The notes: a model not told the origin generated them from the letters alone. Numbered from the stretch's first letter, positions 2,287 through 48,864 are shown. The stretch: 64,000 nucleotides of DNA from Candidatus Eiseniibacteriota bacterium (GCA_036274595.1 DASUFL010000056.1:28030-92029), one strand, 5' to 3'. A program made the numbers and translations.

Positions 2287-2290
2287 CCGG

Positions 2291-5344: not shown

Positions 5345-5521
5345 GTGCTCTCGCAAGGAGGATGGGCCGCTGCTCAGCCGGGGTCGAAGCAAGCCCCTAC
5401 GGGGGGCTGGTCCACACATTGAGGGTAGAGGGGCTCGCGCGGACCCGACAAGGTAGCCGAAGGTGGCATGCCCCCGTCGGCGCCGAGCGAATCGCCTCGC
5501 GGCCCGCGCGGCCTCCCGCAC

Positions 5522-5550
5522 TTGAGCCGTCCGCGTCGGCGCGGTACACT
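5522..5550 (+). promoter_or_regulatory. Sigma70-like promoter TTGAGC-17-TACACT, 8 nt upstream of the ATG (leaderless transcript predicted)
   Basis: TTGAGC lies at 5522-5527, a 17-nt spacer follows, and TACACT lies at 5545-5550. ATG is at 5559 and there is no SD. Confidence 0.35.
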
Positions 5551-5558
5551 GCCCGGCC

Positions 5559-6608
5559 ATGTCCGAGTACGACAAGAACAACCCCGAGCCCCTCAAGCCC
5601 CTCTACGATCCCGTGGGCGACCACGCGCCTGCCGCGCTCGTGACCGGGCCGACCGGCGCCATCGGCCGCGTCGTCTGCCGCGAGCTCGTGCAGAACGGCT
5701 ATCGCGTGCTCGGGCTGACCCGGAACTCGGACCAGTTGGCGCGTCTTCCGTACGCGGTCGTCCCCGTGCTCGGCGACATCCGGGATCCGGGGCGCTGGGA
5801 CTCGGCGATCACCCGCGCGGACGTCGTGATCCACGCGGCCATTCCGGCCGCTCCCAAGGGACCCAAGGACCGCGCGTACGCCGCGCGCGAAGCCGAGGAG
5901 CTGGCCTTGATCGCCACGGGCATCGCGACGGCTGTCCGGAAGAAGAAGAAGCGGCTCATCGCCACCTCGAGCGCGATCCTGTTCGAGCCGAACAGGGACG
6001 GCTGGGTGACGGAGTCGAGCGGCTACTCCGAAGGGAAGGGCTATGGCATCCGCCAGCGCCGGATCTATCGCGCGATCCAGGACCAGCGAAGGAAGGGGCT
6101 CAAGGCGATCGTGATGTGCCCCGCATTCGTCTACGGGCCGGGCGGATGGTTCGAGAAGTCGATGCTCGAGCCGATGGGCCGCGGCGAATCGCGGATGATC
6201 GGCGAGGGCAATCAGACGATGCATTATGTCGAAGGGGGCGATGTCGGCCGCGCCTACCGGCTCGCCATCGAGCACGGCGTGGACGGCGACGACTACCTGA
6301 TCGGCGACGACAAGCCGACCACGCACGGAGCCTTCACGCGGCTCGTGGCCCGCGAGATGGGCGCGCCGTCGCCGGTCTCCGTGCCCGAGGAAGATCTCAT
6401 CCCGATCCTGGGAGAATGGGGCCTCGAGGCGATGACCACGTGCCCCAAGATCGACTCCACGCGCGCGCGCGAGCGCCTGGGCTGGACCCCAGAGTACAAG
6501 ACGACCGAGGAAGGCGTGCCGGTCGTCGTGCGCGACTACAAGTGGCGCCGCGAGATGGCGCCGGACCTCGAGCCCTTCCGACCGGTCCAGCACCGAAGCT
6601 GGACGTGA
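5559..6608 (+). CDS. NAD(P)-dependent epimerase/dehydratase family oxidoreductase (SDR)
   Basis: Rossmann motif LVTGPTGAIGRVVCREL is followed by …VLGDIRD…; the protein is about 349 aa. ATG at 5559. Confidence 0.8.
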   Translation: MSEYDKNNPEPLKPLYDPVGDHAPAALVTGPTGAIGRVVCRELVQNGYRVLGLTRNSDQLARLPYAVVPVLGDIRDPGRWDSAITRADVVIHAAIPAAPKGPKDRAYAAREAEELALIATGIATAVRKKKKRLIATSSAILFEPNRDGWVTESSGYSEGKGYGIRQRRIYRAIQDQRRKGLKAIVMCPAFVYGPGGWFEKSMLEPMGRGESRMIGEGNQTMHYVEGGDVGRAYRLAIEHGVDGDDYLIGDDKPTTHGAFTRLVAREMGAPSPVSVPEEDLIPILGEWGLEAMTTCPKIDSTRARERLGWTPEYKTTEEGVPVVVRDYKWRREMAPDLEPFRPVQHRSWT

Positions 6609-6630
6609 CCCTCCTGGGGCGCGTCAGCGC

Positions 6631-7761
6631 TCACGGAATGAAGTAGAACGCCATTCCCAGGATCACGTAGACCGCCACCATCAGCGCCCCTTCCAGCCAG
6701 TTCGATTCGCCATCCTGCGCCACCAGATTCACCACCGCCGTCGCGAGGAGCACGGAGAGCACCTCGAACGGCGTGAAGCGCAGGTCCATGGGTCCGTGCT
6801 TCATGAAATGGGACGCGAACACGAGGACGGGGGCGACGAAGAGCGCGATCTGGATGCTCGAGCCCGTCGCGATCTGGAGCGCCAGGTCCATCTGGTTGCG
6901 CATGGCCACGAGGACGGCGGTCGAGTGCTCGGCCGCATTCCCGATCACCGCGACCACGATCACTCCGACGAAGATCTCCGTGAGTCCCAGTGCGTGCGAC
7001 GCCGCCTCGACCGCGCCGACCAGGATCTCGCTCATCCACGCGACCAGCGCGGTGGCGACGAGGAGGAGGACCACCGAGCGCCACGTGGGCACGGCCGGCC
7101 CGTGCGCCTGGTGCTCTCCTCCTTGGTAGAGGTGCCGGTGCGTGCGGAGGCTGAAGAGGAGATAGGCTCCGTACGCGATGAAGAGAACCACGGCGATCTC
7201 GAGCGAGAGCCCGGTCTCGAGAATGCCCTCGCGCTCGGGCGTCACGCGATTCGAGGCGACCGCGCCCATCGCGATCGGGTGGAAGATCGCGGGAACAAGG
7301 AGGCCGGTCGCGGCCAAGGCGAGGAGGGTCGAGTTCACGGCGGCGGCCGCTCGATCGAACGTCTGCGACGGTCGCTTCAACCCGCCCGCGAAGATGGCCA
7401 CGCCGAGCACGAGCAGGACGTTCCCGATGATCGACCCGGTGAGCGATGCCTTCACCACGTTGTAGAGTCCGCGCTCGAGCGCGGCGAAAGCGATGATCAG
7501 CTCGGCGGCGTTCCCGAAGGTGGCGTTCAAGAGGCCGCCGACGCCGGCGCCGAGCTTGGCCGCGAGCTCCTCGGTGGCGCGTCCCATGAGCCCGGCGAGC
7601 GGAACGATCGCGATCCCGGCGCACCCGAACACCGCGAGCGGTCCCCAGTGGAGGCGCTCCGCCAGGACGGCGATCGGGATGAACACGAGCAGGAGCTGGA
7701 GCGCGTTTTCGGGAGCGAACAGCCGCGTGCCCGCCCCCGTATGCCCGGCCGCCGGTCCCAT
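6631..7761 (-). CDS. Ca2+/H+ (cation/proton) antiporter, CaCA/ChaA-CAX family
   Basis: Two alpha-repeat motifs are present: [17 protein letters not shown] and [17 protein letters not shown]. The protein is multi-TM. ATG at 7761 (cat at 7759-7761) gives MGPAAGHTG…[13 protein letters not shown]. Confidence 0.8.
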
Positions 7762-10959: not shown

Positions 10960-13236
10960 TTGGACCTGGAACCGGGTAAGAAGCTCTCGCACTACAAGAT
11001 CCTCGAGAAGCTCGGGGAAGGGGGCATGGGCGTCGTCTTCCGCGCCCATGACGACCGCCTCAAGCGAGACGTCGCCATCAAGGTGCTCCGCGGCGGCCGC
11101 TGGGGCGACCAGAGCCTGCGCGAGCGATTTCGCCTCGAAGCGTTCGCGCTCTCCCGCGTCAATCATCCGAACGTGGCCGTGATCTACGAATTCGGCGAGA
11201 GTCACCGCGTCCAGTTCATCGCCATGGAGTACATCCCCGGAATCACGCTCGGCCATCGGATGCGGTCGGGTCCCGTGGCGCAGGCGGAGGCGATCGATCT
11301 CGCCATCCAGATCGCGGACGGTCTGTCGGCCGCCCACGTGGCGGGTGTCGTCCATCGCGATCTCAAACCGGCCAACGTCCGGCTCCTGAACGAGACCTGG
11401 GCGAAGATCGTCGACTTTGGCCTTGCGAAGCGCCTCCCCCGTCCTTCGGATAGCGATCCTCGTTCGCTCACCGAATCCGACAAGATCGTAGGCACCGTGC
11501 CCTACATGGCTCCTGAGCAGATTCGCGGCCAGTGCGACGTGCGAACCGACGTCTACGCGCTCGGAGCGGTGCTCTACCAGATGGCCACGGGCCAGCGGCC
11601 GTTCCCTCAGGAGGACATGCCGCGGCTCATCTACGCCATCGCCTACGAGCCCCCTCCGCCGGTTCGATCCCTCAACCCGGGCGTGTCGCCGCCGCTCGAA
11701 CGGCTCATCCTTCGCGCGCTCGAGAAAGAGCCCGATCTGAGATACGCGACCGCGCAGGAGATCGCTGTCGCCCTCAAAGAGATCCGGGATCTGATCCGCT
11801 CCGGCGGCTCACCCCATGCGGCGCCGGCCCGGCCGCGCCCCATTCGCACGCTGGCGGTGCTGCCACTCGAGGAGATTTCGGGGAGCTCCGACGGGGACTA
11901 CTTCGCGGATGGGATCACCGAGGCGATCATCAGCGACTTGTCGAAGTTGAAGGGGCTGGGCGTCACCGGACGGACGTCCATCATGCGCTACAAGCGGACG
12001 ACGAAGCCGATCCCCGAGATCGCTCGCGAGCTGGGCGTCGACTCGGTGCTCGAGGGTACCGTGCAGCGCGTGGGAGACCGCGTGCGCACGGGCGTGCGTC
12101 TGGTTCGCGCGGCGCCGGAGGAGTCGATCTGGGCCGAGACGTACGACCGCCGTCTCATGGACCTCCTGACGCTCCAGAGCGACATTGCGCGCTCGGTCGC
12201 GCGCGAGATCGAGCTGCAGATGAAGCCGAGCGAGCCGGCGTTCGCGGTGCGCTCGCCCGCGGTGGATCCCGAGGCCCTCGTCCTCTACATGACGGGACGC
12301 CAGCAGTGGAACCGCCGCGACATCGACGGGCTCAGGGCGGCGATCCGGTGCTTCGAAGGAGTCGTCGCCAAGTCGCCCGACTTCGCGCTCGCGTTCGCGG
12401 GGCTCGCCGATTGCTACGCCATTCTTGGGAATTGGAGCGTTCTTCCCCCTCGCGACGTCTACCCGAAGGCCAAGAAGGCCGCGCTCCGAGCGCTCGCTCT
12501 CGATCCCAATCTGGGCGAGGCTCACGTCGCCCTCGCGTTCGCCGAATACCTCTACGACTGGAAGTGGGAGCAGGCGGAGCAGGGGTTCCGGCGCGCGATC
12601 GAGCTCAGCCCGAGCTATGCGCAGGGCCACCTGTGGTACGGCAACTTCCTGTCGGCCATGGGGCGACACGACGAGGCGATCGCGGAAGCCCGACGTGGAC
12701 AGGAGCTCGATCCCCTGAGCCCGATCATCTCCGCGATTGCGGCCTGGATCCACTACGAGGCGGGCCGCTACGAGGAGACGGTCGAGCGTTGCCGGCGCGA
12801 TCTCGAGATGAATCCGATCCCGCAGTACTACCTGTTCATGGGGCTCGCGCTCACACAGCTCGGCGAATACGATGAGGCGATCGCTTCATTCGAGCGCGGC
12901 GTTTCGCTCTCCGGTGGGATCACCGAGATGTATGCCGGGCTCGGTTTCGCGTACGGCGTCTCGAAGCGCACGGCGGAGGCCTATCGCGTGCTCGACGAGC
13001 TGGACCGGCTCTCCAAGAGCCGCTACGTGCCCCCCTACTCGCGCTCCATCGTGCACATCGGGCTCGGCGAGCGCGCGAAAGCGCTCGATCTCCTCGAGCA
13101 GGCGTGCGAGGAGCGCAACACATGGCTCATCCTTCTTGGAGTGGAGCCCCTCTTCAACTCCATCCGCGAGGAACCCCGCTTCCAGAGAATCCTGGATGTG
13201 ATCGGGCTCCCGAGCCAGCAGACCGCCGCCGTCTAG
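10960..13236 (+). CDS. Ser/Thr protein kinase with central TolB-N-like domain and C-terminal TPR repeats
   Basis: GEGGMGVVFRA, AIK, HRDLKPAN, DFG and APE are Hanks kinase motifs. The middle region LAVLPLEEISGSSDGDYFADGITEAIISDLSKLKGLGV…IWAETYDRRL matches the TolB-amino-terminal-like pattern. TPR-like helices occupy the C-terminal ~300 aa. The start is TTG at 10960. Confidence 0.85.
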   Translation: MDLEPGKKLSHYKILEKLGEGGMGVVFRAHDDRLKRDVAIKVLRGGRWGDQSLRERFRLEAFALSRVNHPNVAVIYEFGESHRVQFIAMEYIPGITLGHRMRSGPVAQAEAIDLAIQIADGLSAAHVAGVVHRDLKPANVRLLNETWAKIVDFGLAKRLPRPSDSDPRSLTESDKIVGTVPYMAPEQIRGQCDVRTDVYALGAVLYQMATGQRPFPQEDMPRLIYAIAYEPPPPVRSLNPGVSPPLERLILRALEKEPDLRYATAQEIAVALKEIRDLIRSGGSPHAAPARPRPIRTLAVLPLEEISGSSDGDYFADGITEAIISDLSKLKGLGVTGRTSIMRYKRTTKPIPEIARELGVDSVLEGTVQRVGDRVRTGVRLVRAAPEESIWAETYDRRLMDLLTLQSDIARSVAREIELQMKPSEPAFAVRSPAVDPEALVLYMTGRQQWNRRDIDGLRAAIRCFEGVVAKSPDFALAFAGLADCYAILGNWSVLPPRDVYPKAKKAALRALALDPNLGEAHVALAFAEYLYDWKWEQAEQGFRRAIELSPSYAQGHLWYGNFLSAMGRHDEAIAEARRGQELDPLSPIISAIAAWIHYEAGRYEETVERCRRDLEMNPIPQYYLFMGLALTQLGEYDEAIASFERGVSLSGGITEMYAGLGFAYGVSKRTAEAYRVLDELDRLSKSRYVPPYSRSIVHIGLGERAKALDLLEQACEERNTWLILLGVEPLFNSIREEPRFQRILDVIGLPSQQTAAV

Positions 13237-13706
13237 AGGCCGCCGGGGCCGATGATCCGGAGCGTCGCCTTGGTCGGGCTCGTGCGAATCACGTAGGTGC
13301 GGGTCATGAGCGACTGGATCGTGTCGAGGAGCTTCGGGTCGTTCGAGACGACCGAGACGCCGACCAGGACCGCGGAGCGCGGATCGCCGGGCGCGTGGGG
13401 CTGGCCGATCCAGTTGTCCCAGTCGAGCCGGTAGTCGCGCCGCACGAACGCGAACCCCACCGGCAGGCGGCTCACGAGCTCCAGGGGAGGAATTCCGGGG
13501 GACAGGTCCGCGGGCCACTTCGACGTATCCCCGTAGTTCATGTACGCCGCGGCACGGATGGCGTAGAGATCGCCCACCGCCTGCATGGCGTGCGTGCTCC
13601 GCATGATGCTGAAGTAACCCGTGATCGAGATGGCGCCCACGATCGAAACCACGAGGAGCGCGATCGACAGCTCGATCAGGGTGAACCCTGACTGCCCCTG
13701 CCTCAT
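13233..13706 (-). CDS. Prepilin-type N-terminal cleavage/methylation domain protein (type IV pilin or pseudopilin-like)
   Basis: ATG at 13706 gives MRQGQSGFTLIELSIALLVVSIVGAI, the class-III signal / N-methylation motif. 157 aa. Its 3' end overlaps the kinase stop by 4 nt (convergent). Confidence 0.7.
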   Translation of the reverse strand: MRQGQSGFTLIELSIALLVVSIVGAISITGYFSIMRSTHAMQAVGDLYAIRAAAYMNYGDTSKWPADLSPGIPPLELVSRLPVGFAFVRRDYRLDWDNWIGQPHAPGDPRSAVLVGVSVVSNDPKLLDTIQSLMTRTYVIRTSPTKATLRIIGPGGL

Positions 13707-13836
13707 CCCTGGAAACCCCTGTGGTGCTCTCTGGCGCGCGGCGCGGACACCCCTCGGCGCTCGACCTATCGGCAGATGGGGCGCGTTGTTTACCGCGAAC
13801 GGGTCCCGCGGTCCTCGACCGGAACCGGGGGTCTCT

Positions 13837-14595
13837 CTAACGACCGTCGATCCGTCCCAGAAGGCGGAGCAGCCCGTCGAGGATCGTGACCGGGTGCGGC
13901 GGGTGCCCGGGCACGAAGAGATCCACGGGCACGACCGACGCCGCGCCGTCGAGCACCTCCGGATGTCCCGCAAAGGGCCCGCCCGAGATCGCAGCCGCGC
14001 CCACCGCGATCACGATCTTGGGCGGCGGGATCGCATCGTAGGTCTTCTCGAGCGCGAGCCGCATGTTCCGCGTGACGGGGCCGGTGATGAGGAGCCCGTC
14101 GGCGTGGCGCGGCGACGCGACGAACTGGATGCCGAAGCGGCCGAGATCGAACACGACATTGCCGAGCGCGGCCGCTTCCAGCTCGCACCCCGCCGATCCG
14201 CCAGCGCTCACTTGGCGCAGCCTGAGCGAGCGGCCGAACAACCGCCGGGCTTCGCGGTCCAGCGCCTGGGCCAGGCGGTAGGGCTCCTCCCCGACGACGA
14301 GGTCCTCGCGTTCCCGCGCGGCCATGCGGTAGTCGGATCCGAAGCGGATCGCGCCGGTCGGGCAGGCGGCGACGCACTCCGCGCAGAACAGGCATCGGCC
14401 GAGATCGAGAGTGAGCGCGGGCTCGAGGCGGATCGCGTCGGTGGGGCACCGCTCCGCGCACGCGCGGCATCCCTCCTCGCAGCGGGACGGGTCGAGCACG
14501 GGCCGCCCGCGGAACGTCCCTGGCAGCGAGACGTCCGCCGGGAACGGAATCGTGCGGCGCCCCTGGCGGAGACGCTCGAGAAACGCTTTCAGCAT
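13837..14595 (-). CDS. Fused 2x[4Fe-4S] ferredoxin (HycF/NuoI-like) and NuoB/HycG-like small subunit with degenerate N2-cluster site
   Basis: The N-terminus carries CEEGCRACAERCP and CLFCAECVAACP, two intact CxxCxxCxxxCP motifs. The C-terminus aligns to NuoB (FDLGRFGIQFVASPRHADGLLITG…YDAIPPPKIVIAVGAAAISGG…VPVDLFVPGHPPHP). The canonical cysteines of CCxxE, GxCxxGG and GCPP are replaced (only one Cys remains, in GCELE). ATG at 14595. Confidence 0.8.
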   Translation of the reverse strand: MLKAFLERLRQGRRTIPFPADVSLPGTFRGRPVLDPSRCEEGCRACAERCPTDAIRLEPALTLDLGRCLFCAECVAACPTGAIRFGSDYRMAAREREDLVVGEEPYRLAQALDREARRLFGRSLRLRQVSAGGSAGCELEAAALGNVVFDLGRFGIQFVASPRHADGLLITGPVTRNMRLALEKTYDAIPPPKIVIAVGAAAISGGPFAGHPEVLDGAASVVPVDLFVPGHPPHPVTILDGLLRLLGRIDGR

Positions 14596-14623
14596 GCGCG
14601 GATCCTGACCGGCGCGGGATCGT

Positions 14624-16111
14624 TCACAGGTCGTGTCCGCTGTAGGAGAGGTTGAAGCTCTTGTTGCAGAGCGGGAAATCGGAGATCGGCTGGTCCCGCA
14701 TCGCCATCGCGAGCCCGGTCCAGTTGTGGAACGAGGGATCGACGATCTTGTATCGACGGAAGCGGCCTTCGCCGTCGGTGACCGCCGTGTGGCAGATCTC
14801 GCCGCGCCAGCCCTCCACGAGCGACACGGCGATGCACTCGGGCGCGAGCCTGGGCAGGGCGCCGTCCCGCCGCGCCGCTCCTTCCGGAAGCGACGAGAGG
14901 ACCCGCGCGATGAACTCGGCCGAGTGCGCAACCTCGAGCGAACGCACACCTGCCCGCGCGAACGCGTCTCCCGTGTCCCGTGTCGCGACCGGGATCGCGG
15001 CCTCCCGGTAGAGACCCTCGGGATGGTCGCGGCGAACGTCCCGATCGAGACCGGACGCGCGCGCGGCGGGCCCCACCATTCCGAGCGATTCGGCGATGTC
15101 GCGCTTGAGGACCCCGGTCTCCTCGAGCCGGCCGCGGACGGTCGCGTTGGCCCGGATCAGCTCGAAGGAGCGCGCCAGCTCCGCGGTCAGGGCCAGGACC
15201 GCGCCGGCGATGGCTCCCGTATCGGCCGGCGACAGATCGGCACCGACTCCGCCGGGACGCACCCACCCGACTCCCATCCGGCTCCCGCAGGCGAGCAGCG
15301 TGAGGTTGAGCAGATCGCCCCGGATCCGGCCGCAGTAGGAGGCGGCGGGAAGGTAGCCGATGTCCCCCGCGAGCGCACCGAAGTCACCGGCGTGGTTCGC
15401 CATGCGCTCCAGCTCGAGCGCCGCCGCCCGCAGCGCGCGTCCCCGTGCCGGAACCTCGATCCCGGCGAGCGCCTCGACCACGATGGAGTAGGCGAGCGCG
15501 TGCCCCACCGACGTGTCGCCCGCGATCGCGTCCACGAGGTGCGGGGTTCGCTTCCCCGGTCCGCCTTCGAGGGCCCGCTCGATCCCGCGGTGCTGGTAAC
15601 CGAGCGAGATCTCGAGGTGGAGCACGCGCTCCCCGTGGCACTGGAACCGGAAGTGTCCCGGCTCGATCACCCCCGCGTGCACGGGGCCGACCGCCACCTC
15701 GTGCACCTCGTCTCCCGCCACACGGAAGTACTCCATGACTCCCGGTCCCGGCCCGTTGGGGTCGTTGAAGCGGACCGGCTTGAGCCACGGATGCCCCTCA
15801 GGCAGCACCCCCCACTCCTCCGCGATCTCGCGCTCGAAGAGATGGGCCTGCGGGAACCGGGGCGTCAACGCGGGGAAGGCGCTCTCGGCCCGCGTCGACG
15901 TGAGCATGAGCTCCTCCCCTCCGGAGTGCGCCACCACGGCGATGAGGCGGAGTCCCGCGTCCCGCTCCGGCAGGCCGAAGAGCGAGACGAGCCGTGCGCC
16001 CGGAGCCGTCGTGACGGCATCGGCAAACCGGTCCGGCGTGACCCGGGGGATCGTCGCGAGCGGAGCGGTCCCGCCGTTGGCCATCGGGACGCAGGCCTGG
16101 ATGGGTGTCAT
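14624..16111 (-). CDS. NuoC-NuoD / HycE-like large subunit of a group-4-hydrogenase-related complex, lacking the NiFe cysteine ligands
   Basis: GPVHAGVIEPGHFRF…LGYQHRGIE is typical of group-4 hydrogenase and NuoD. The region equivalent to the N-terminal RxCGxC motif reads AIAGDTSVGHALAYSIVVEAL, with no Cys. The C-terminal DPCxxCxxH equivalent reads SDFPLCNKSFNLSYSGHDL. ATG at 16111 overlaps the upstream stop (ATGA). Confidence 0.8.
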   Translation of the reverse strand: MTPIQACVPMANGGTAPLATIPRVTPDRFADAVTTAPGARLVSLFGLPERDAGLRLIAVVAHSGGEELMLTSTRAESAFPALTPRFPQAHLFEREIAEEWGVLPEGHPWLKPVRFNDPNGPGPGVMEYFRVAGDEVHEVAVGPVHAGVIEPGHFRFQCHGERVLHLEISLGYQHRGIERALEGGPGKRTPHLVDAIAGDTSVGHALAYSIVVEALAGIEVPARGRALRAAALELERMANHAGDFGALAGDIGYLPAASYCGRIRGDLLNLTLLACGSRMGVGWVRPGGVGADLSPADTGAIAGAVLALTAELARSFELIRANATVRGRLEETGVLKRDIAESLGMVGPAARASGLDRDVRRDHPEGLYREAAIPVATRDTGDAFARAGVRSLEVAHSAEFIARVLSSLPEGAARRDGALPRLAPECIAVSLVEGWRGEICHTAVTDGEGRFRRYKIVDPSFHNWTGLAMAMRDQPISDFPLCNKSFNLSYSGHDL

Positions 16112-17580
16112 GGCGCGAGCATGCCGGCCGCCGAACGGAGCGCGTGCGCGAGGCCCGAGGGAATGTATAGGCCGATCGCGAGCACCGCCGCGGCGAGGAC
16201 CAGCGGAGGCAGGACGGCGAGGCGGCTCTCGCCATGTGCGGATCCCGCGGGCAGGGGCGGCGCCTCTCCTTGCGCCATCCGCGACATCGTGGACGCCATA
16301 CCGATGAAGATCACGGCGAGGAGGACGAGGTAGAGCACGCCGATCACGATCCGTCCCTGCTCCATCGCCCCGCGCAGGATGAGGATCTCGCTCACGAACG
16401 TTCCGAACGGCGGCGAGCCCGTGATCGCGAAGAGCCCCGCGATCCAGAGCGCGCCGGTCGCGGGGACGCGCGCCAGGACGCCGCGGACCTCTCTCGCGGC
16501 CTTGGTGCGGTAGGCGGCCAGGATGTTGCCGGCGAGGAGGAAGAGCATCGCCTTCGTGAGGGAGTGGCCCAGGACATGGAGCATCGCTCCGAACGTGGCG
16601 ACCCCTCCGAGTCCCACGCCCAGGGCCAGGATGCCCATGTGCTCCACGCTCGAGTAGGCGAGAAGGCGCTTGTAGTCCGCCTGGGCGATCACGAACGCGG
16701 CGGCGATCGCCATCGAGAGGAGCCCGAAGACGACCAGCATCCCGCGCGCGTAGGTGTCGAGGCCCGCCGCGCTCATGACCTGGAGCGCCCGCAGGATGCC
16801 GAGGAACGCGCAGTTGAGGAGCGCGCCCGAGAGGAGGGCCGAGACGACCGAGGGCGCCTCGCTGTGGGCGTCGGGAAGCCACGTGTGAAGCGGAGCGAGT
16901 CCCATCTTGGTGCCGTAGCCGACGAGCAGGAAGATGAACGCGCCCTTGAGCCAGGGCGTGTGCAGCAGAGCCGCGTGCGCCCGGAGCCCTTGCACGCTCA
17001 AGGGAATGCTCCCTCCGCCGTGGACCGTCGCGGACACGGCGAGGAAGAAGTTCCCCAGGAGCGCGAGGCCGATCCCCACCGAGCAGATGAGGAGATACTT
17101 CCAGGTCGCCTCGAGGGAGCGGTGGTGGCGGTGGAAGTAGATGAGCGGCGCGCTCGCGAGGGTCGTCGCCTCGATGGCCACCCAGAGGAGCCCCAGGTTG
17201 TCGCTCACGATCACGAGCGTCATCGTCGAGAGAAAGAAGAGGAGGCAGCCGACGAAGACCGCTTCGGGAGCATTCGTGAACCGGAAGCCTTCCACGAAGT
17301 CCTCGCGGGCTCCGGGCGACTCGCGGCGGAGGTAACCGACCGCGTAGACCGCGGAGACCAGGAAGAGGGCGCTCGTGACGCCGAGGAAGAGCTGCCCGAG
17401 CGAATCCAGGCGGAGCACGCCGCCCCACCCGGTGCCCGGCGGCCGGACCCACGTCGCGACCGTCAGTGCGGCGTGGGCGGCCGCCACGGCGATCATGAGC
17501 GCGCGGCGCCACGCCGCGGGCCGGAGAAAGAAGCTGAGGAGCCCGCCCAGAGCCGGGAGGAGCACGAGCGCGGAGAGCAT
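16108..17580 (-). CDS. NuoN/NuoM/HyfF-like proton-pumping antiporter subunit
   Basis: The protein is multi-TM. …GILALGVGL…HSLTKAMLFLLAGNI… are Mrp/NuoMN family signatures. ATG at 17580. Confidence 0.8.
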   Translation of the reverse strand: MLSALVLLPALGGLLSFFLRPAAWRRALMIAVAAAHAALTVATWVRPPGTGWGGVLRLDSLGQLFLGVTSALFLVSAVYAVGYLRRESPGAREDFVEGFRFTNAPEAVFVGCLLFFLSTMTLVIVSDNLGLLWVAIEATTLASAPLIYFHRHHRSLEATWKYLLICSVGIGLALLGNFFLAVSATVHGGGSIPLSVQGLRAHAALLHTPWLKGAFIFLLVGYGTKMGLAPLHTWLPDAHSEAPSVVSALLSGALLNCAFLGILRALQVMSAAGLDTYARGMLVVFGLLSMAIAAAFVIAQADYKRLLAYSSVEHMGILALGVGLGGVATFGAMLHVLGHSLTKAMLFLLAGNILAAYRTKAAREVRGVLARVPATGALWIAGLFAITGSPPFGTFVSEILILRGAMEQGRIVIGVLYLVLLAVIFIGMASTMSRMAQGEAPPLPAGSAHGESRLAVLPPLVLAAAVLAIGLYIPSGLAHALRSAAGMLAP

Positions 17581-17582
17581 CG

Positions 17583-18227
17583 CTATTCCTTGAGCGTCGC
17601 GAGCCGGGTCGTGTCGATCGAGTCGAACTCGCGGCTGATGTGGAAGACCGTGATCCCCATGACGAACACGGCGACGAACACGTCGAGGAGGATGCCCAGC
17701 TCGACGAGGGCGGGCGCCTCGTACGCGATGCCCACGCCGAACGCATAGATCCCGTTCTCGAAGACGAGATAGCCGAGCGCCTGGCTCAGAGCCTTCTTCC
17801 GGCTCACCACGAGGAAGAGGCCGACGAAGAGGATCGAGAGCGAGGTCGGGACGAGCAGATCCGACGCCGCCGTGCCCGGCAGCGGCAGCCGGCCCGCCAC
17901 CCACAGCGCGATCAGGAACGAGCCCACGCCGGCGAGCACCGACGGCACGTACCCGACGAAGGGCTCGACCTCGCGGCGGACCTTGGCGCCTCGGAGCGCC
18001 CGGAGGAGGAGCCAGGGAAAGACGACGCCCTTGAGCGCGATCCCCGCCAGGCCGATCGCGATGAAGCGGAGCGTCAGGTGACCCGAGTTCGCGAGGAGGG
18101 CGACGATCCCGAGCAGCACCCCCTGGGTCGCCACGGTGCGGATGCTCGCGTTCAGCCGGCTCACACCGAGCAGGCGGAGGTTCGTGAACACGAGCAGGAC
18201 CATCAGCGTGTCGAGGAGGACGCGCAC
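17583..18227 (-). CDS. HyfE/NuoK-like small membrane subunit
   Basis: About 215 aa with 6-7 TM helices (LLGIVALLANSGHLTLRFIAIGLAGIALKGVVFP…). The start is uncertain: GTG at 18227 lies 2 nt after the upstream stop, or ATG at 18203. Confidence 0.6.
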   Translation of the reverse strand: MRVLLDTLMVLLVFTNLRLLGVSRLNASIRTVATQGVLLGIVALLANSGHLTLRFIAIGLAGIALKGVVFPWLLLRALRGAKVRREVEPFVGYVPSVLAGVGSFLIALWVAGRLPLPGTAASDLLVPTSLSILFVGLFLVVSRKKALSQALGYLVFENGIYAFGVGIAYEAPALVELGILLDVFVAVFVMGITVFHISREFDSIDTTRLATLKE

Positions 18228-18229
18228 GG

Positions 18230-19141
18230 CTATCTCAGGATGAGGGCGATCGCGACGATCGCGAACGCCCCCGCTCCGATCAGGAACTGCGGCACCCGCG
18301 CCATGCGGAGCCGCGCGATGGTGGATTCGATCACGCCGATCGCGACCGCGAGCCCGGCCATCGCGGCGAGGAATGAGGCCGCGTCCAGCCACGCCGAGCC
18401 GGTCCGGATCGGAAGCATGACCCCGACCGACAAGGCCCCCATCACCCAGAGCTTGAGCGCGGCGCCCCACTGGATCCACGCGAGGTCGGGGCCGCCGTGA
18501 TCGAGCACCATCACTTCGTGGATCATCGTCAGCTCGAGGTGCGTGGCGGGGTCGTCCACGGGAATCCGCGAGTTCTCGGCGAGGAGCACACCGAGGAGCG
18601 CGACGCCCACGAGGAGGAGCACGGGCGCGCCCCGCTGCCAGTCCGCCTCGGTCAGCCCGCCCACGATGCCGGTGAGCGACGCGCTCCCCGAGACGCGCGC
18701 CGCGGCCGCGAGGCAGAGGAGGAGCACGGGCTCCGCCAGCGCCGAGAAGGTCGCTTCGCGGCTCGCCCCCATGCCCTCGAAGCTCGAGCCCGTATCGAGC
18801 GCGGCCGCCATCGTGAGGAAGCGGGCGGACGCGAGCAGCGCCGCGAGGAGGACGAAGTCCCCCGGAAACGCGATCAGCGAGGGGAAGCCGGCCTGGGGGA
18901 GGAGGCTGAGCGCGGCGATCGGCGCGCCGATCGCGACCGCGGGCCCCAGCGCGAACACGCCGGTCGTGGTGCGGCTCAGGACCGCCCCCTTGCGGAGGAG
19001 CTTCGCGAGGTCGAAGTAGACCTGGAGCATCGGCTGCCCGTTGCGCCCCGCGAAGACCGCCTTGGTTCTGTGGATCACGCCGAGGAAGAGCGGCGCCGCC
19101 AGCAACGCGACGACGGGGCCCACGAGTCCTGGCGTGTTCAT
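18230..19141 (-). CDS. NuoH/HycD-like membrane subunit (formate hydrogenlyase subunit 4 family)
   Basis: 303 aa, multi-TM, with NuoH-like architecture. ATG at 19141. Confidence 0.75.
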   Translation of the reverse strand: MNTPGLVGPVVALLAAPLFLGVIHRTKAVFAGRNGQPMLQVYFDLAKLLRKGAVLSRTTTGVFALGPAVAIGAPIAALSLLPQAGFPSLIAFPGDFVLLAALLASARFLTMAAALDTGSSFEGMGASREATFSALAEPVLLLCLAAAARVSGSASLTGIVGGLTEADWQRGAPVLLLVGVALLGVLLAENSRIPVDDPATHLELTMIHEVMVLDHGGPDLAWIQWGAALKLWVMGALSVGVMLPIRTGSAWLDAASFLAAMAGLAVAIGVIESTIARLRMARVPQFLIGAGAFAIVAIALILR

Positions 19142-19163
19142 GCGCCCACCCCCGCGGAGCGGC

Positions 19164-21158
19164 TCATGGATTCACCAGGAACTGATAGACGAGGACGGCC
19201 AGGAGCGTGAGCGCGATGTAGAGCACGTAGATCTGAACGCGTCCTTCCTGGATGCGCCGGAAGTGCCCGAGGCGCCGGCCCATCTCGTTCGCGATCGGCG
19301 TGACGACCCGCTCGCGGAAGGTGTCGGTCGTGGCGGTCGCGTGCGACGCCTGCGCGGGAAAGAGCCCCGTCGGCTTCAGGGACGAGATGCGCGTCCCCAG
19401 GACGGGGGCGAAGATCTCGAGAACAGGCTGCGCGAACGAGGAGCCGGTGTACTGCATGCGTGAAGTCGGGGCGGCGTAGCCGCAGCCCCACGTCGGAACG
19501 CGCGCGGGCCGCCGCCGCGCGAGAAGGGCCGCCCGGGTGGCGAGAGCCAAGAGCGTGAGAACGAGGAAAGCCGCGGCCACCGCGGCGATCCTCGCGAGGA
19601 TGGCGGCCGCGGTGTCCAGCTCGGCGGTGACGGCCGCCTTGGAGAGCGCTGATGCTGCATCGAGCTCCCCGATGGGCGCGGCCGTGGCGACGTAGGGCAC
19701 GGCCGGCGCGAGCGCGCGCAAGACCCAGGGCCCGCCGAGGCCGATCGCGAGGCAGAGCGCAGCCAGGATGGCCATCGGCGCGCGAAGGAGCGCGCCCGAC
19801 TCGTGGGCCTCGCGCGCGGCGGCGGTTCGTGCTTCCCCCAGGAACGCGATGCCGAACGCCCTCACGAAACAGACCGCGGCGAACCCGCCGATCAGGGCCA
19901 GCCCGGCAATGAGCACGAATCCGGACAGCGCGACCTGGCTCGACGAAACCGCCGCCGCGCGGAAGGGGCCCAGGAGGATCAGGAACTCTCCCAGGAACCC
20001 GTTGAGCGGCGGGAGCCCCGCGATCGCCATGGCGCCCGTCAGGAAGACCCCTCCGGTCCAGGGCATGCGACGGAGGAGTCCCCCGAGACCCTCGATCTCC
20101 CCCGTGCCCGTCCCATGGATCAAGGAGCCCGCGGCGAGGAAGAGGAGCCCCTTGAAGAGGGCGTGATTCAAAACGTGGAGGAGCGCTCCCGCGAACCCGA
20201 GCGCCGCGAGGAACGGCACATGGTGGGACACGCCGATCAGACCCACGCCCATGCCGCACGCGATGATGCCGATGTTCTCGATGCTGGAATATGCGAGCAG
20301 CCGCTTCAGCTCGCTCTGCGCGAGCGCGTAGAGCACCCCCAGGATCCCGGAGATCAGGCCGATGCCGAGGAGGAGCCAACCCCACCAGGGAGGCGGCGGT
20401 CCGAGGAGCGGAAGCGTGCGCAGGAGCCCGTAGATTCCCATCTTGATCATCACGCCCGACATCACCGCGGAGACATGCGCCGGCGCGGCGGGGTGCGCCT
20501 CCGGAAGCCACATGTGGAGCGGCATGAGCCCCGCCTTGGTGCCGAAGCCCACGAGGGCGAGCAGGAAGAGCGCGCCAGGCGCGAGGAGCGGCGGGGCGGC
20601 GCCCTGCTCGATCGGGCCGAAGTCGAGCGAGCTGGACGTCCCGGAGAGCGCGAGGAAGAAGACCATGAGGAAGGCGGTGCCGATGTGCATCGCGATGAGG
20701 TAGGTCCGCCCGGCGTGCCGCACCTCGCGCCGGCCGTGGTGCAGCGTCACGAGGAAATAGGACGCGAGGGTCATGCCCTCCCACGCGACCAGGAACAGGA
20801 TCCCGTTTCGCGCGACGACGACGAGCGCCATGCTGGCGATGAGAAGGTTGAACCAGAGCCACGCGGCGGTGCGGGCTCCGGCGTCGTGCCGGAGATAGCC
20901 TGCGCCGTAGATCGCGGCCAGAGCGGAGAGGCCAAAGACCAGCAGGAGGAAGAAGGCGGACAGCGGGTCGACCCCGACGCTGAAGGACGCGAGCGGGATG
21001 CTCCAGGGGAGCGTGAGCGACTCCGGCGTGGACCGGAGGAGCACTCGGAACGCCGGGATCAGGCCGAGCGCGCACCCTAAGACCGCGCCGGCGGAGCCAA
21101 CCCAGGCGGCGCGCCGTCCCCGGGAGAGCCATGACGACACGCCCGAGAGGACGAGCAC
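19164..21158 (-). CDS. NuoL/HyfB-like large antiporter-type membrane subunit
   Basis: 664 aa. …WLPEAHPAAPAHVSAVMSGVMIKMGIYGLLR… and …LLAYSSIENIGII… are complex I L/M/N-family motifs. GTG start at 21158. Confidence 0.8.
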   Translation of the reverse strand: MLVLSGVSSWLSRGRRAAWVGSAGAVLGCALGLIPAFRVLLRSTPESLTLPWSIPLASFSVGVDPLSAFFLLLVFGLSALAAIYGAGYLRHDAGARTAAWLWFNLLIASMALVVVARNGILFLVAWEGMTLASYFLVTLHHGRREVRHAGRTYLIAMHIGTAFLMVFFLALSGTSSSLDFGPIEQGAAPPLLAPGALFLLALVGFGTKAGLMPLHMWLPEAHPAAPAHVSAVMSGVMIKMGIYGLLRTLPLLGPPPPWWGWLLLGIGLISGILGVLYALAQSELKRLLAYSSIENIGIIACGMGVGLIGVSHHVPFLAALGFAGALLHVLNHALFKGLLFLAAGSLIHGTGTGEIEGLGGLLRRMPWTGGVFLTGAMAIAGLPPLNGFLGEFLILLGPFRAAAVSSSQVALSGFVLIAGLALIGGFAAVCFVRAFGIAFLGEARTAAAREAHESGALLRAPMAILAALCLAIGLGGPWVLRALAPAVPYVATAAPIGELDAASALSKAAVTAELDTAAAILARIAAVAAAFLVLTLLALATRAALLARRRPARVPTWGCGYAAPTSRMQYTGSSFAQPVLEIFAPVLGTRISSLKPTGLFPAQASHATATTDTFRERVVTPIANEMGRRLGHFRRIQEGRVQIYVLYIALTLLAVLVYQFLVNP

Positions 21159-21234
21159 TCCTACCGAGAGCAGAACGTAGGAAATCGGGCGAGCCCCTTG
21201 CCTAGTTCGTGATGTTCACGGATCGCCCGCTCAA

Positions 21235-21277
21235 CGAGACAAACGGGCCGGCCGCACGTTAGCAGCCGGCGGGCCCC
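21235..21277 (-). terminator. Imperfect GC-rich hairpin plus T-rich tail downstream of the CBM9/DUF5916-like gene
   Basis: On the minus strand, GGGCCCGCCGGC…GGCCGGCCC is followed by GTTTGTCTCG. Confidence 0.3.
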
Positions 21278-21293
21278 GATTCAAGCCCGGGCG

Positions 21294-23897
21294 TCAGATC
21301 GCGATCCAGTAGGTGACCTTGGCGAGGACCCGGTTCTCGGGCTCGTTGTGGAAGGCCTGGCCCCCGCCGATGTCGGGGCTGAAGTGGGTGCTGCCCATGT
21401 TGTACCGGTCTTCGTAGGTCGAGCGGCTCTGGGTCCAGACGAGGTAGAACGTGCTCCCCGGCCGGTACTCCCAGCGGTAGACCAGGTTCAGGTTGACCGC
21501 CGCGTAGCTGAAGTCCCAGTCGTTGACCGTGTAGCCGGGCTGCCCGGACTGCACGATCACGGGATCGGCGAACGGCAGGAAGTCGTAGCTGTCGGGGTGG
21601 ATCAGCTCGCGAACCCGCGTGTAGTCGCCCGTCGTGATGAAGGGCTGCGCGTAGATCTCCAGCGACTGGTTCCGGCTGAAGAGGACGTTGGACCGGAGCG
21701 TGATGTCGAACGTCTCCTGGTGGATGTCGCCGAAGATGTAGCTGGTCCCGCCGATCCCGCGCGCGTTCGGATAGTCGGCCGAATTCAGGTTCGCGAGCCA
21801 CTGGGTGTCGTCGATACGGCGGTCGAAGTTCAGCGAGATCGAGTGGTTGATCGAGCTCGACTGGTTCCACTTCACCGTGCCGGTGTAGTGGTTCCCGATG
21901 TTCTTGGCCGTGTCGACGAAGTAGTTGCCCTCGAGGGTCAGGACGAAGTTCTTCCTCGAGTCGCTCGAGATGCCCATCCAGCCGCCGTACGTGTGGGGCT
22001 CCCGGATCAGCGGGCCGCCTCTGGTTTCGTACCGGTGCGTTCCCTCCCCGTTGTACGAGAGCCCCATCCAGAACTCCCGGTAGTTGCGGAACTGGAGCCA
22101 CGTGCTCGTCTCGACGTGCGAGTACTGTGGGTGCGCGGCGCCGTACGACCACGCCGGCAGCCCCGTGTTGACGTCGTATCCGGTCCGCGCCGCGTAGATC
22201 CAGCTCCGATTCGCGTTCAGGTTGAACTCGCCCCGATTCCAGGTCTTGCTCTTCCCCTCGGGGTTGTACGGCTTGTAGAGGTAGACGCTCGTATTGATCT
22301 CGTCGGGGGACTCGAGGAAGCCCATGTCGTTGATCTGGAGCTTGTCCGACTCCCACCGTCCGCTGATCCCGCCCTGGAGCTTCCCACCGCGCTTGCGAAT
22401 GTCGAGCGCGCCTCCTGTGCCGTACGCCGGGGCGCCGGTGATCGTGGGATCGGACGTCGACGTCTCCGGGTCGATGATCGAGCCCACCATGGACCCTTGC
22501 ATGTTGAACTGGCGGTTCTTCGAGTTGAGATCGAAGTCGAACCCGCTCGTGTAGGCCTCGCGCGATCCCGCGTCGCCGTAGAGGTCGCGGCTCCCGGTGC
22601 GGAGCACCGCAGTCTGCATCAGGTTGAACCGGTTCCGTCCGCCCGTGAACTCCTTGCCGAAGCGCCCCACGAAGTAGCGCGTGAGCTGGCCGCCGTTCTT
22701 GAACAGGTTGTGCGCCTGCCCCTCCTGCGTGATGTCCGTGGAGGCGGCGAGGGCGGCGACCGAGACGCCGCCGAAGCTCTTGCCCGTCAGCTTGGCCGCG
22801 TAGCGGATGCGCGTGTTCTCGTCCCCCGTCCCGATGCGTCGCGAATAGAAGAGATTGAAGTCGGGATGCTGGAAGAAGCGGCTCCCCTCGATGAAGAAGG
22901 GCCGCTTCTCGTCGTAGAACGTCTCGAACGGCGAGAGATTGAGGACGGCCGGATCGGCTTCGACCTGGCCGAAATCGGGCTGCACGGTCGCGTTGAGCGA
23001 GAGGTCGGGGGTGATGCCGTACCGAACGTCCGCCCCCACGTTGCGGAACCCGTGCACGTCATCTCCCGACCCCTGGATGCTCGGATCCGTGGCGCTCTGG
23101 ACGAAGTAGGGAAGGAGCTCGATCTGGCGCGGCGAATGGACGCTCGCCAGCCCGGTCAGATTGCCCCACCGGCTCACCGTGCCGTGCTCCTTCCGATCCC
23201 AGATCACCCACCCGGTGTTCTCGCCCCGCCCCTGCATGTACCGATAGACCTGGAGCCCCCACGTCATCACGGGCTCGGTGCGATACTTGATCGCGGAGAA
23301 GGGAATGCGGATCTCGGCGTACCAGCCCCGCTCGTCGCGCGAGGTCTCCGCCTGCCAGACCGCGTCCCAGTCCACGTCGGTATCGCCGTCGTTGAAGATG
23401 TAGGCGTCCTGCTGGACGCCGGTCGCGCTGACCTTGAAGTTGTAGCCCGTCGTGTGGTCGTGATACGGGTCGATGAACACGCTCACGATGTCGCAGCCCG
23501 CGTCGCGATCGCGGCGTGAGAGCTTGGCGACGATCTTCGACGGATCCTTCTCGAGGCACGCGATCCCGAAGTAGACCGCGTCCTCGTCGTAGACCACCTT
23601 GAACACCGTCTGCTCCGACGGCTCGGCGCCGCGATCCGGGTCCCACTGGCGAAATCCGCGCGCCGCGGGGACGTCCTTCCAGGCTAACTCGTCGAGCTTG
23701 CCGTCGAGGTTCACGTTGCCGCTGCCGTTCAGGCGGTGCGCCGAGACCGTCGGGGCCGCGGCCCGACGCCCGTCCGAGCTGTCCGTGTCCGCCCCGCCCG
23801 GGATCGCGGGGTCGAAACCCTCGAAACCCTGAGCGGCGGGGGCGAAGAGGAGCGCCGCCGCGAGGCCGAGGAGGCCGGAAACTCGTTTGTGCCGCAT
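21294..23897 (-). CDS. Secreted/outer-membrane protein with N-terminal CBM9-like domain and DUF5916-like C-terminal region
   Basis: Signal peptide MRHKRVSGLLGLAAALLFAPAAQG. …KLDELAWKDVPAARGF…VYFGIACLE…FIDPYHDHTTGYNF is a CBM family-9-like pattern. The long C-terminal region is strand-rich and ends …VTYWIAI. SD AAGGAG lies 10 nt upstream of the ATG at 23897. Confidence 0.6.
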   Translation of the reverse strand: MRHKRVSGLLGLAAALLFAPAAQGFEGFDPAIPGGADTDSSDGRRAAAPTVSAHRLNGSGNVNLDGKLDELAWKDVPAARGFRQWDPDRGAEPSEQTVFKVVYDEDAVYFGIACLEKDPSKIVAKLSRRDRDAGCDIVSVFIDPYHDHTTGYNFKVSATGVQQDAYIFNDGDTDVDWDAVWQAETSRDERGWYAEIRIPFSAIKYRTEPVMTWGLQVYRYMQGRGENTGWVIWDRKEHGTVSRWGNLTGLASVHSPRQIELLPYFVQSATDPSIQGSGDDVHGFRNVGADVRYGITPDLSLNATVQPDFGQVEADPAVLNLSPFETFYDEKRPFFIEGSRFFQHPDFNLFYSRRIGTGDENTRIRYAAKLTGKSFGGVSVAALAASTDITQEGQAHNLFKNGGQLTRYFVGRFGKEFTGGRNRFNLMQTAVLRTGSRDLYGDAGSREAYTSGFDFDLNSKNRQFNMQGSMVGSIIDPETSTSDPTITGAPAYGTGGALDIRKRGGKLQGGISGRWESDKLQINDMGFLESPDEINTSVYLYKPYNPEGKSKTWNRGEFNLNANRSWIYAARTGYDVNTGLPAWSYGAAHPQYSHVETSTWLQFRNYREFWMGLSYNGEGTHRYETRGGPLIREPHTYGGWMGISSDSRKNFVLTLEGNYFVDTAKNIGNHYTGTVKWNQSSSINHSISLNFDRRIDDTQWLANLNSADYPNARGIGGTSYIFGDIHQETFDITLRSNVLFSRNQSLEIYAQPFITTGDYTRVRELIHPDSYDFLPFADPVIVQSGQPGYTVNDWDFSYAAVNLNLVYRWEYRPGSTFYLVWTQSRSTYEDRYNMGSTHFSPDIGGGQAFHNEPENRVLAKVTYWIAI

Positions 23898-30303: not shown

Positions 30304-30318
30304 GGAATGTGGTATAGT
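30290..30318 (+). promoter_or_regulatory. Sigma70-like promoter TTGGAT-17-TATAGT for the downstream T9SS-cargo gene
   Basis: TTGGAT lies at 30290-30295, a 17-nt spacer follows, and TATAGT lies at 30313-30318. The element overlaps the start codon of the divergent minus-strand gene. The GTG start of the plus-strand gene is about 75 nt downstream. Confidence 0.45.
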
Positions 30319-30392
30319 ACCTCTTTCCACGCGCGGGTCCTGAGCCCACGCACCGAATCGTAGAAAGCATTCCCCAGTTTTCTCGAGACACA

Positions 30393-34711: not shown

Positions 34712-34857
34712 GGACCGGCGACCCCTAGAATTCAGGGACGTCAGGGTCGACCTCGAAGCGAACTCCTCCCCGCCTGGAGACGCCCGTCAGCGATTCCCCG
34801 GTCCCGCCGGGACCGCCTCGCGATTCCGGTTCGAGGACTGACTCCACACCCACCGAG

Positions 34858-38544: not shown

Positions 38545-38545
38545 G

Positions 38546-39853: not shown

Positions 39854-39909
39854 CCGTGTCTCCTCGGAACCGTAGGGCTCTGCATCGGCCGGGCTCGGCC
39901 GGGCACCGA

Positions 39910-48853: not shown

Positions 48854-48864
48854 AAGGGGCGAGG

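Follow-up and report, generated by a model that had tools for sequence, protein, structure and literature searches.

It was found that a 64,000-nucleotide (nt) stretch of DNA from a Candidatus Eiseniibacteriota bacterium (GCA_036274595.1, DASUFL010000056.1:28030-92029; hereafter, the window) carries a self-contained six-gene operon for an Ehr complex at positions 13837-21158 of the minus strand. The assignment was made by comparing the subunit composition and the motifs with published descriptions. The family has carried the name Ehr since 2005/2013 (Coppi 2005; Marreiros et al. 2013). In the literature, including papers of 2025-26, the name stands for energy-converting or Ech-hydrogenase-related complexes with group-4-like gene clusters and no assigned function, in which the Ni-Fe cysteines are missing from the large subunit. 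Thus, the Ehr class itself is already known. The less ordinary part is that the window operon belongs to a clade of Ehr that has lost the proximal [4Fe-4S] cluster of the small subunit, together with a neighboring cysteine of the large subunit. The explanation developed below, which joins the Ehr identity, the clade, an interrupted electron path, and a mechanism, is rather probable as a whole.

The operon and its metal-binding sites

The G+C content of the window is ~68-72 %, and mechanical ORF lists are therefore full of spurious frames. Gene starts were fixed by start-codon inspection. All six reading frames are intact and tightly packed. In the order of transcription, gene A (19164..21158, 664 amino acid residues (aa)) encodes a HyfB/HycC/NuoL-type antiporter-like subunit resembling EhrA, gene B (18230..19141, 303 aa) a HycD/NuoH-type membrane subunit resembling EhrB, gene C (17583..18227, 214 aa) a HyfE-type membrane subunit resembling EhrC with a NuoK-like C-terminal half, gene D (16108..17580, 490 aa) a HyfF/NuoM/N-type antiporter-like subunit resembling EhrD, gene E (14624..16111, 495 aa) a NuoC-NuoD/HycE-type large subunit resembling EhrL without Ni-Fe ligands, and gene F (13837..14595, 252 aa) a small subunit resembling EhrS in which NuoI/HycF and NuoB/HycG are fused. 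The spacing from A to F is 22, 2, and 2 nt, an ATGA overlap of D and E, and 28 nt. A GTG codon 18 nt downstream is a possible alternative start for gene A. The gene calls of the Joint Genome Institute on the source contig have the same six protein lengths, and the small subunit there is 100 % identical to F. An earlier note, made by a model from the sequence alone, had described the same map, with gaps of 2 to 28 nt and one ATGA overlap.

Ehr has been described as a set of six subunits, namely a NuoC-NuoD fusion, a NuoI-NuoB fusion, HyfB, HyfF, NuoH, and HyfE (PMC6349859 Supplementary Note 4). The window operon encodes the identical set, both fusions included. The Geobacter complex consists of EhrA (NuoL-like), EhrB, EhrC (HyfE-like), EhrD, EhrL, and EhrS (PMC7894505). 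The Ehr type and the Hyf/Hyc-type architecture had both been proposed in the earlier note, and Pfam, NCBIfam, and PDB matches agree with the latter. Five of its six subunit identities (NuoL/HyfB, NuoH/HycD, HyfE, NuoN/HyfF, and NuoCD/HycE types) were also recovered. The sixth was incomplete, as the ferredoxin domain of the small subunit had been missed.

Gene E has the Pfam domains Complex1_30kDa and Complex1_49kDa, which is the NuoC-NuoD/HycE arrangement, and its top PDB match is HycE (7z0s_E, 2.9e-42). The same chain is the top Foldseek match (template modeling (TM) score 0.81) of an AlphaFold2 model of E with a predicted local distance difference test score (pLDDT) of 86 and a predicted TM score of 0.90. 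Since the pLDDT falls below 50 at residues 143-153 and 491-495, which are the pocket loops, the model was not used for pocket geometry. Ligand positions were instead read from HMMER alignments to the solved HycE, MbhL, and Aquifex NuoD (7q5y_B). Conservation was assessed in alignments of 121 sequences each for E and F, composed of the window sequence and the 120 best matches out of at least 8000 homologues.

The former L1 motif (RxCGxCxxxH) now reads A195-IAGDTSVG-H204 (15500..15529). The R-V-C-G-I-C-G-F-A-H of HycE aligns over A195-I-A197-G-D-T200-S-V-G-H204, and both cysteines are replaced, by A197 and T200, as the earlier note had said of this site. The former L2 motif (DPCxxCxxH/R) now reads N487-LSYSGHD-L495 (14627..14653). 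Here, the D-P-C-Y-S-C of HycE aligns over N487-L-S489-Y-S491-G492, and both cysteines are again replaced, by S489 and G492. The register was controlled with a true [NiFe] paralogue in a Myxococcales metagenome-assembled genome (MAG), which reads ERICGVCSVSH … DFPLINKSFELCYSCTDR and whose FELCYSCTDR aligns without gaps with the L2 segment. The earlier note was right about the loss of the C-terminal cysteines, but the DFPLCNKSF that it put in the place of DPCxxCxxH lies 9 residues upstream of the true equivalent, NLSYSG. Thus, all four [NiFe] cysteine positions of E are replaced. At the position of S491, the former Ni site, every relative with a retained proximal cluster has Cys.

The replacement motifs AGDT(S/T)(V/I)GH and SDFPLCNKSFNLSY(C/S)GHDL are near-invariant in the best 120 large subunits. 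In the former, Gly and Asp are found in 121/121 sequences and Ala in 110/121; the first L1 ligand position is Cys in 10 sequences, and the other three ligand columns have no Cys at all. A third conserved element is the hydrogenase-type loop GPVHAGVIEPGHFRF (residues 142-156, 15644..15688), 13/15 positions of which are invariant in the 121 sequences. It retains the glutamate of the hydrogenase 'EPGHFR' motif (IEPGHFR), and the His of the complex I motif HPxxHG is replaced, being aligned to I149. The Tyr of the complex I motif RxDY aligns to G198 in the comparison with Aquifex NuoD. I take the quinone-site roles of this Tyr and His from the T. thermophilus structure.

Could E still belong to a working [NiFe]-hydrogenase, with its cysteines hidden by a sequencing or frameshift error or present in an alternative register? 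The overall fold and the 'EPGHFR' loop are indeed hydrogenase-like. However, the 121 sequences come from independent assemblies, and their ligand columns lack Cys as described above. Cysteines restored by a shifted register or a frameshift were looked for, and the alignments and the gap-free paralogue leave no place for them. The protein stops 3 residues past the L2 equivalent and has no C-terminal cleavage extension, no hyp or protease gene lies in the window, and HydDB was trained to leave Ehr out of the hydrogenases. This possibility is hardly credible. Because none of the four Ni-Fe cysteines is present, the complex is not a hydrogenase.

The locus of the [NiFe] paralogue (PMCK01000562.1) deserves a description of its own. 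At nt 673-3196, a second group-4-like gene pair lies directly upstream of the Ehr cluster. The Ni-Fe motifs of its large subunit (ERICGVCSVSH and ELCYSCTDR) are canonical, and the small subunit of the pair, also a NuoI-NuoB (I-B) fusion, has the four proximal-cluster cysteines but has lost the first ferredoxin motif. Since the canonical motifs stand beside an Ehr cluster, a true hydrogenase and Ehr adjoin there.

In gene F, residues 1-105 form a NuoI/HycF-type 2x[4Fe-4S] domain and residues 120-252 a NuoB/HycG-type domain. Pfam finds Fer4 families at residues 30-100 and Oxidored_q6 at 136-244. The PDB matches are HycG (7z0s_G, residues 120-250, 2e-27), HycF (7z0s_F, residues 9-100, 2e-15), and 6cfw_N (residues 6-99). 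The NCBIfam matches to the NuoB family (109 bits vs 116), HycF/HyfH, and NuoI are all below their cut-offs. The first ferredoxin motif, C39-EEG-C43-RA-C46-AER-C50-P (14443..14481), has the spacing C-x3-C-x2-C-x3-CP. The second, C68-LF-C71-AE-C74-VAA-C78-P (14359..14394), is canonical. All eight cysteines are invariant in 121/121 sequences. Therefore, the complex is not cofactor-less, as the earlier note had called it.

The ligands of the proximal (N2-type) cluster are a different matter. In alignments to HycG, MbhJ, and PSST, the former CxxC is S134-A-G-C137 (14185..14196), in which C137 alone is kept, the third ligand (GAC) has become G-A-A201-A (13990..14001), and the fourth (PGCPP) has become P-G-H231-P-P (13897..13911). 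Thus, one of the four ligands remains, with S134, C137, A201, and H231 in the place of four cysteines, and the loss of three N2-cluster cysteines reported in the earlier note holds. The two ferredoxin-type clusters are the only cofactor sites left in the complex.

A clade lacking the proximal cluster

Among the 121 small subunits, the four proximal positions read C-C-C-C in 68, S-C-A-H in 44, S-C-S-H in 5, S-G-S-H in 1, and otherwise in 3. The 50 small subunits of the S..H type form one exclusive neighbor-joining clade with no C-C-C-C member inside, as would be expected if the cluster was lost once and the new residues were conserved thereafter. C137 persists in 49/50 clade members, and His is found at position 231 in 50/50.

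The large subunit changes in step. In loci with both subunits on one contig, a small subunit of the S-C-A-H type always goes with a large subunit having NLSYSG, and one of the C-C-C-C type always goes with NLSYCG. More broadly, the cluster-bearing large subunits read …SYCGHDL, usually …AYC, and the cluster-less ones, the window included, read …SYSGHDL, …AYS/A. The columns that separate the two clades are four in the large subunit (279, 315, 324, and 491) and six in the small subunit (134, 135, 143, 146, 201, and 231). The polar pocket of the large subunit and the two NuoI-type ferredoxin clusters stay invariant in the cluster-less clade. The aligned sequences point to a surgical loss, in which the proximal cluster and the neighboring thiol at the old Ni site were lost together and the remainder was kept.

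Is the operon merely a relic of a former hydrogenase or Ehr operon, which has lost its ligands and function and is now drifting? The ligands of two of the four ancestral metal centers are gone, and the Geobacter Ehr was suggested to be non-functional in one study (PMC13194489). In contrast, the Geobacter Ehr subunits have been found as proteins and respond to growth conditions (PMC7894505). In the window, the six frames are intact and have a tight, operon-like spacing, and the replacement motifs are near-invariant in 121 sequences from many phyla. With a mean pairwise identity of 0.84 in both clades, the B-domain is as conserved as in the cluster-bearing relatives; the value for the I-domain is 0.71 in the cluster-less clade and 0.63 in the cluster-bearing one. 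Within the clade, E and F have a ratio of nonsynonymous to synonymous substitution rates (dN/dS) of 0.09-0.29, close to that of the membrane genes, and the range over all six genes is 0.07-0.38. As dS is probably saturated, these values are best read as resembling upper bounds, and the value for gene A against locus L001 is disregarded, since L001 lacks gene A and gave a paralogous match. A relic is thus very improbable, since the intact frames, the conserved motifs, and the low dN/dS lead to the exclusion of pseudogene decay as well as frameshift or sequencing errors.

Outside the 121 sequences, I found more distant I-B fusions (P0261, P0269, P0320, P0345, P0363, P0372, and P0390) that are 38-49 % identical to F. 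Their proximal positions are occupied by Asp, Thr, Asn, and similar residues, as in GGDGSTE / GSDAISGG / PGNPVHP, and most of them have one complete ferredoxin motif only. Their sequences indicate that other branches of the family lost the proximal cluster independently. Since these lineages also lack the cysteines, the loss appears to be recurrent in the wider family. Other non-C-C-C-C patterns in the representative search, such as C-C-C-A and C-C-C-L, come in many cases from fragments or frameshifted metagenome proteins and were not counted as losses.

How the complex may work

The membrane arm was assigned with Pfam and NCBIfam models, and its nearest structures were taken from PDB matches. 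Genes A and D have the Pfam domain Proton_antipo_M, and A also has Proton_antipo_N. The NCBIfam model for hydrogenase 4 subunit B gives 620.8 bits for A, below the cut-off of 667, and the top PDB match of A is HycC (7z0s_C, 1e-74). Gene B has the Pfam domain NADHdh, and its top PDB match is the formate hydrogenlyase subunit 4 HycD (7z0s_D, 9e-27), followed by MbhM and MbsM. Gene C matches the hydrogenase 4 membrane subunit HyfE (1.9e-27) and has Oxidored_q2 over residues 129-213. Gene D matches hydrogenase 4 subunit F (4.9e-109). These last two NCBIfam matches are also below cut-off, as is every curated NCBIfam score for the six proteins, and therefore no named Nuo or Hyf protein has an equivalog among the six. 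The canonical ionizable residues of the antiporter-like subunits are retained across the membrane arm (A and D). In A, these are the Glu of transmembrane helix 5 (WEG), the Lys of helix 7 (GTKAG), the Lys of helix 8, and the Glu of helix 12 (GFLGEF). In D, the equivalents of K234 and E407 of E. coli NuoM are present, and that of K265 is Asn.

These matches also bear on whether the operon is part of a canonical complex I (NADH:quinone oxidoreductase), with nuoA, E, F, G, and J elsewhere in the genome. The Pfam families are those of complex I, and the top NCBIfam models for E and F are NuoD and NuoB. However, the scores of the NuoB, NuoD, NuoH, NuoI, NuoL, NuoM, and NuoN models are below the curated cut-offs, and the nearest solved kin of A, B, E, and F are HycC, HycD, HycE, and HycG/F, not Nuo proteins. 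In general, the chains of E. coli formate hydrogenlyase are nearest, then those of Pyrococcus MBH, and then those of complex I. N2 cannot be bound, and the quinone-site Tyr and His have become G198 and I149. In other genomes, these six genes likewise occur as a cassette of their own with unrelated surroundings, and the window has no nuo genes that would complete a standard complex I. This reading is extremely improbable. Since the genes for the N-module, NuoA, and NuoJ and the quinone-site Tyr and His are absent, the complex is not complex I; the earlier note had likewise placed it outside both the hydrogenases and the canonical complex I core.

What, then, may an Ehr complex without a proximal cluster do? 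The neighbor of the proximal cluster in complex I and MBH lies ~10 Å from it edge-to-edge, and a further ~10-12 Å separates the proximal cluster from the substrate site. Physiological electron tunneling fails beyond ~14 Å. Without the proximal cluster, the nearest remaining cluster would lie more than ~20 Å from the large-subunit pocket, judging from homologous solved complexes. Given the loss of the cluster, the tunneling limits, and this geometry, electrons would be unable to reach the pocket, and thus the complex would not be a redox-driven pump of the Ech, MBH, or complex I type. By this analogy, the electron wire would be cut, and the complex would be unable to work as any studied relative does. 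It may be independent of redox chemistry.

The conserved Lys/Glu chain of the membrane arm would still move H+ or Na+, and the peripheral arm would have turned into a non-catalytic cap. The polar residues of the pocket (E150, D199, H204, C482, N483, K484, Y490, and D494) might gate the movement or sense protonation, and the two remaining clusters might be structural or serve as a redox-sensing input. In short, the complex would be a capped, Mrp-like translocator of cations or protons. Taken as a whole and resting on analogy, this mechanism is tentative, with less than an even chance of being right. A still wider proposal concerns Ehr in general. Since about ten positions separate the two clades, the cluster-bearing and cluster-less Ehr would do essentially one job, and that job would be independent of the proximal cluster. 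As more distant Ehr-like lineages have replaced these cysteines too, the core job of Ehr at large would then need no electron delivery to the large subunit, and Ehr would be a redox-independent or redox-gated translocator, a 'capped Mrp'. I regard this generalization as doubtful.

The strongest alternative is that the complex is still a redox-driven pump. Electrons from reduced ferredoxin or another low-potential donor would pass through the two NuoI-type clusters to an acceptor near them, or onward via a non-cysteinyl metal center at S134, C137, and H231, and would drive the Hyf-like membrane arm. Ech and MBH are known to take electrons straight from ferredoxin via the homologous subunit. The eight ferredoxin cysteines are invariant in the 50 cluster-less members too, and the constraint on the I-domain is not relaxed. 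The fourth ligand position is His throughout the clade, and C137 is nearly always kept. On the other side, Ala at the third ligand position is unable to ligate a metal, and no characterized family member is known to pass electrons to the pocket without the proximal cluster. In addition, Cys491 was lost in strict step with the cluster, which looks as if an entire terminal redox site had been taken out and not replaced, and no acceptor-handling gene is linked to the operon. I consider the redox pump somewhat unlikely.

Several points weigh against the capped translocator and the account built around it. The perfect conservation of the eight ferredoxin cysteines in the cluster-less clade is no less expected if electrons still flow than if the clusters are structural. 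In principle, as far as the residues tell, another metal center could be ligated by S134, C137, and H231. The distance of more than 20 Å was taken from homologous solved complexes in the literature and not from the model, whose pocket loops are unreliable. Both the transport function and the role of a cap are, for any Ehr, what I infer. Lastly, no description of the proximal-cluster loss was found in the accessible literature, which does not extend to Coppi 2005 and Marreiros 2013; these may already hold one. The statements on Ehr ligands in the literature covered concern only the missing Ni-Fe ligands and the unassigned function, and no Ehr structure was found among the PDB entries searched.

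As a single locus, the window adds one more Ehr operon from an uncultured bacterium and does not reveal the substrate. The clade is of more use. Ehr is placed between hydrogenases and complex I in evolutionary schemes, is present in many phyla, and has remained without an assigned function for twenty years. By lacking the proximal cluster and the adjoining Cys, a conserved sub-clade amounts to a clean test, made by nature, of whether electrons must reach the large subunit for Ehr to work. The changes seen in it point to mutations for a genetically tractable Ehr host, namely C491S in the large subunit and, in the small one, C to S/A/H. If the capped-translocator reading is true, the clade would be a natural 'wire-cut' member of the complex I superfamily, in which the full peripheral arm and the former active-site pocket are kept.

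Surroundings and known relatives

The cassette stands by itself, without a genetically linked partner module. In the 64 kb window, there are no further nuo-like, hyp, protease, or formate dehydrogenase genes and no paralogue of the six genes. No formate dehydrogenase, NuoEF, ferredoxin, or Hyp module is linked in the window or in the loci L013, L014, and L016-18. The neighbors in the window encode a DUF5916/CBM9 outer-membrane-type protein, a Rieske oxygenase, an acyl-CoA dehydrogenase, a Ser/Thr kinase, and a pilin-like protein. The flanks of the cluster-less operons L013 and L014, and those of the same-family operon L016-18 (ligand pattern unchecked), are unrelated to those of the window and to each other. 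In L016 (nt 2705-3400; also in L017 and L018), a regulator gene with HTH_17 and PTS_EIIA_2 domains lies directly upstream of the Ehr operon on the same strand. It is possibly a dedicated regulator, and it has no counterpart in the window.

The boundaries of the window operon are based on gene spacing alone. A terminator-like hairpin with a 9 bp stem including 8 GC pairs (21247..21270, minus strand; a consensus match only) stands behind the upstream DUF5916 gene. It sets this gene apart from the operon and leaves a leader of ~88 nt before gene A. Terminator-like matches are no more frequent than in shuffled sequence, and a simple sigma-70 promoter scan of 13000-22000 gave no match. The gene that follows 118 nt downstream of the operon (13233-13718, minus strand) encodes a small pilin-like protein, the N-terminus of which has a prepilin methylation motif. 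No terminator-like site was found between gene F and this gene. It is possibly co-transcribed with the operon, and the arrangement is not conserved in other loci.

Some other genes of the window are worth recording. Three eukaryote-like Ser/Thr protein kinases are encoded on the plus strand (10960-13236, 34729-37128, and 48502-50520), two of them with C-terminal TPR arrays. On the minus strand, an unusually large multicopper oxidase of ~1100 aa (2291-5602) has its three cupredoxin domains all within residues 476-860, and the sole recognizable domain of a 968-aa protein (27682-30588) is spermidine-synthase-like (residues 667-815). The genes for dihydrolipoamide dehydrogenase (37156-38598, minus strand) and the 2-oxoglutarate dehydrogenase E1 (39910-42936, minus strand) flank a stretch of ~1.3 kb. 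In 38598-39910, no clean minus-strand frame was seen for the expected E2 gene; 14 stops were counted in the one minus-strand frame that was translated.

The gene order was compared in 12 loci from a single-protein genome scan, in which taxonomic breadth is thinly sampled. The order A-B-C-D-L-IB (L and IB being the large and small subunits) is also found in MAGs of Eisenbacteria, Binatia, Bacteroidota, Lentisphaerae, Myxococcales/delta-proteobacteria, and 'Cyanobacteria'. The Eisenbacteria MAG, with 77 % identity, is probably the nearest named lineage. Homologues with 52-58 % identity occur in a Lentisphaerae MAG and in a groundwater MAG labeled 'Cyanobacteria'. The published Ehr tree includes both Lentisphaerae and Melainabacteria. 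Further Ehr examples in the literature are those of the Nitrospirales (about half of the genomes), Margulisbacteria/Melainabacteria, Sulfobacillus, and M. tuberculosis (Rv0082-87). In delta-proteobacterial and Polyangiaceae MAGs, two tandem HyfB-like genes precede the rest of the Ehr cluster (L006, nt 3070-6989; L010, nt 3018-6877). They resemble ehrA-1 and ehrA-2 of Geobacter, and the window has one such gene. The Ehr of G. sulfurreducens is GSU0739-45.

How does the window operon compare with the known systems? It shares with the published Ehr its subunit set and a large subunit without both CxxC Ni-Fe motifs. The cluster-bearing Ehr, which account for 68/121 small subunits, keep all four proximal cysteines, whereas the sub-clade of the window lacks three of them as well as Cys491. 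The formate hydrogenlyase Hyc (7Z0S) and hydrogenase-4 Hyf of group 4a are the nearest solved or curated kin of every subunit, and the 'EPGHFR' loop is common to them and the window operon. Unlike Hyc and Hyf, the window operon lacks the Ni-Fe ligands, the proximal cluster, HycB, FdhF, HyfD, the maturation genes, and the C-terminal cleavage extension, and the counterparts of HycF and HycG are fused in one protein. Pyrococcus MBH (6CFW) and MBS/Mbx (6U8Y) combine a Mrp-type membrane arm with a ferredoxin-fed, NuoB/C/D/I-like peripheral arm, and their homologous chains match. Mbx/MBS is another relative that gave up H2 chemistry. MBH and MBS are built of 13-14 subunits, with all three [4Fe-4S] clusters in place, the proximal one included, whereas the window operon has six subunits and two clusters. 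With complex I (Nuo/Nqo), it shares homologues of NuoB, C, D, H, I, K, L, and M/N and the same overall module logic, but it has no N-module, NuoA, NuoJ, or N2 ligands, and Gly and Ile stand at the quinone-site Tyr and His. In the case of the Mrp antiporter (7QRU, 6Z16), the antiporter-like subunits match MrpA and MrpD, and there is also NuoK-like homology. Mrp has seven membrane subunits (mrpA-G) and no peripheral arm, whereas the window operon keeps a full and highly conserved one.

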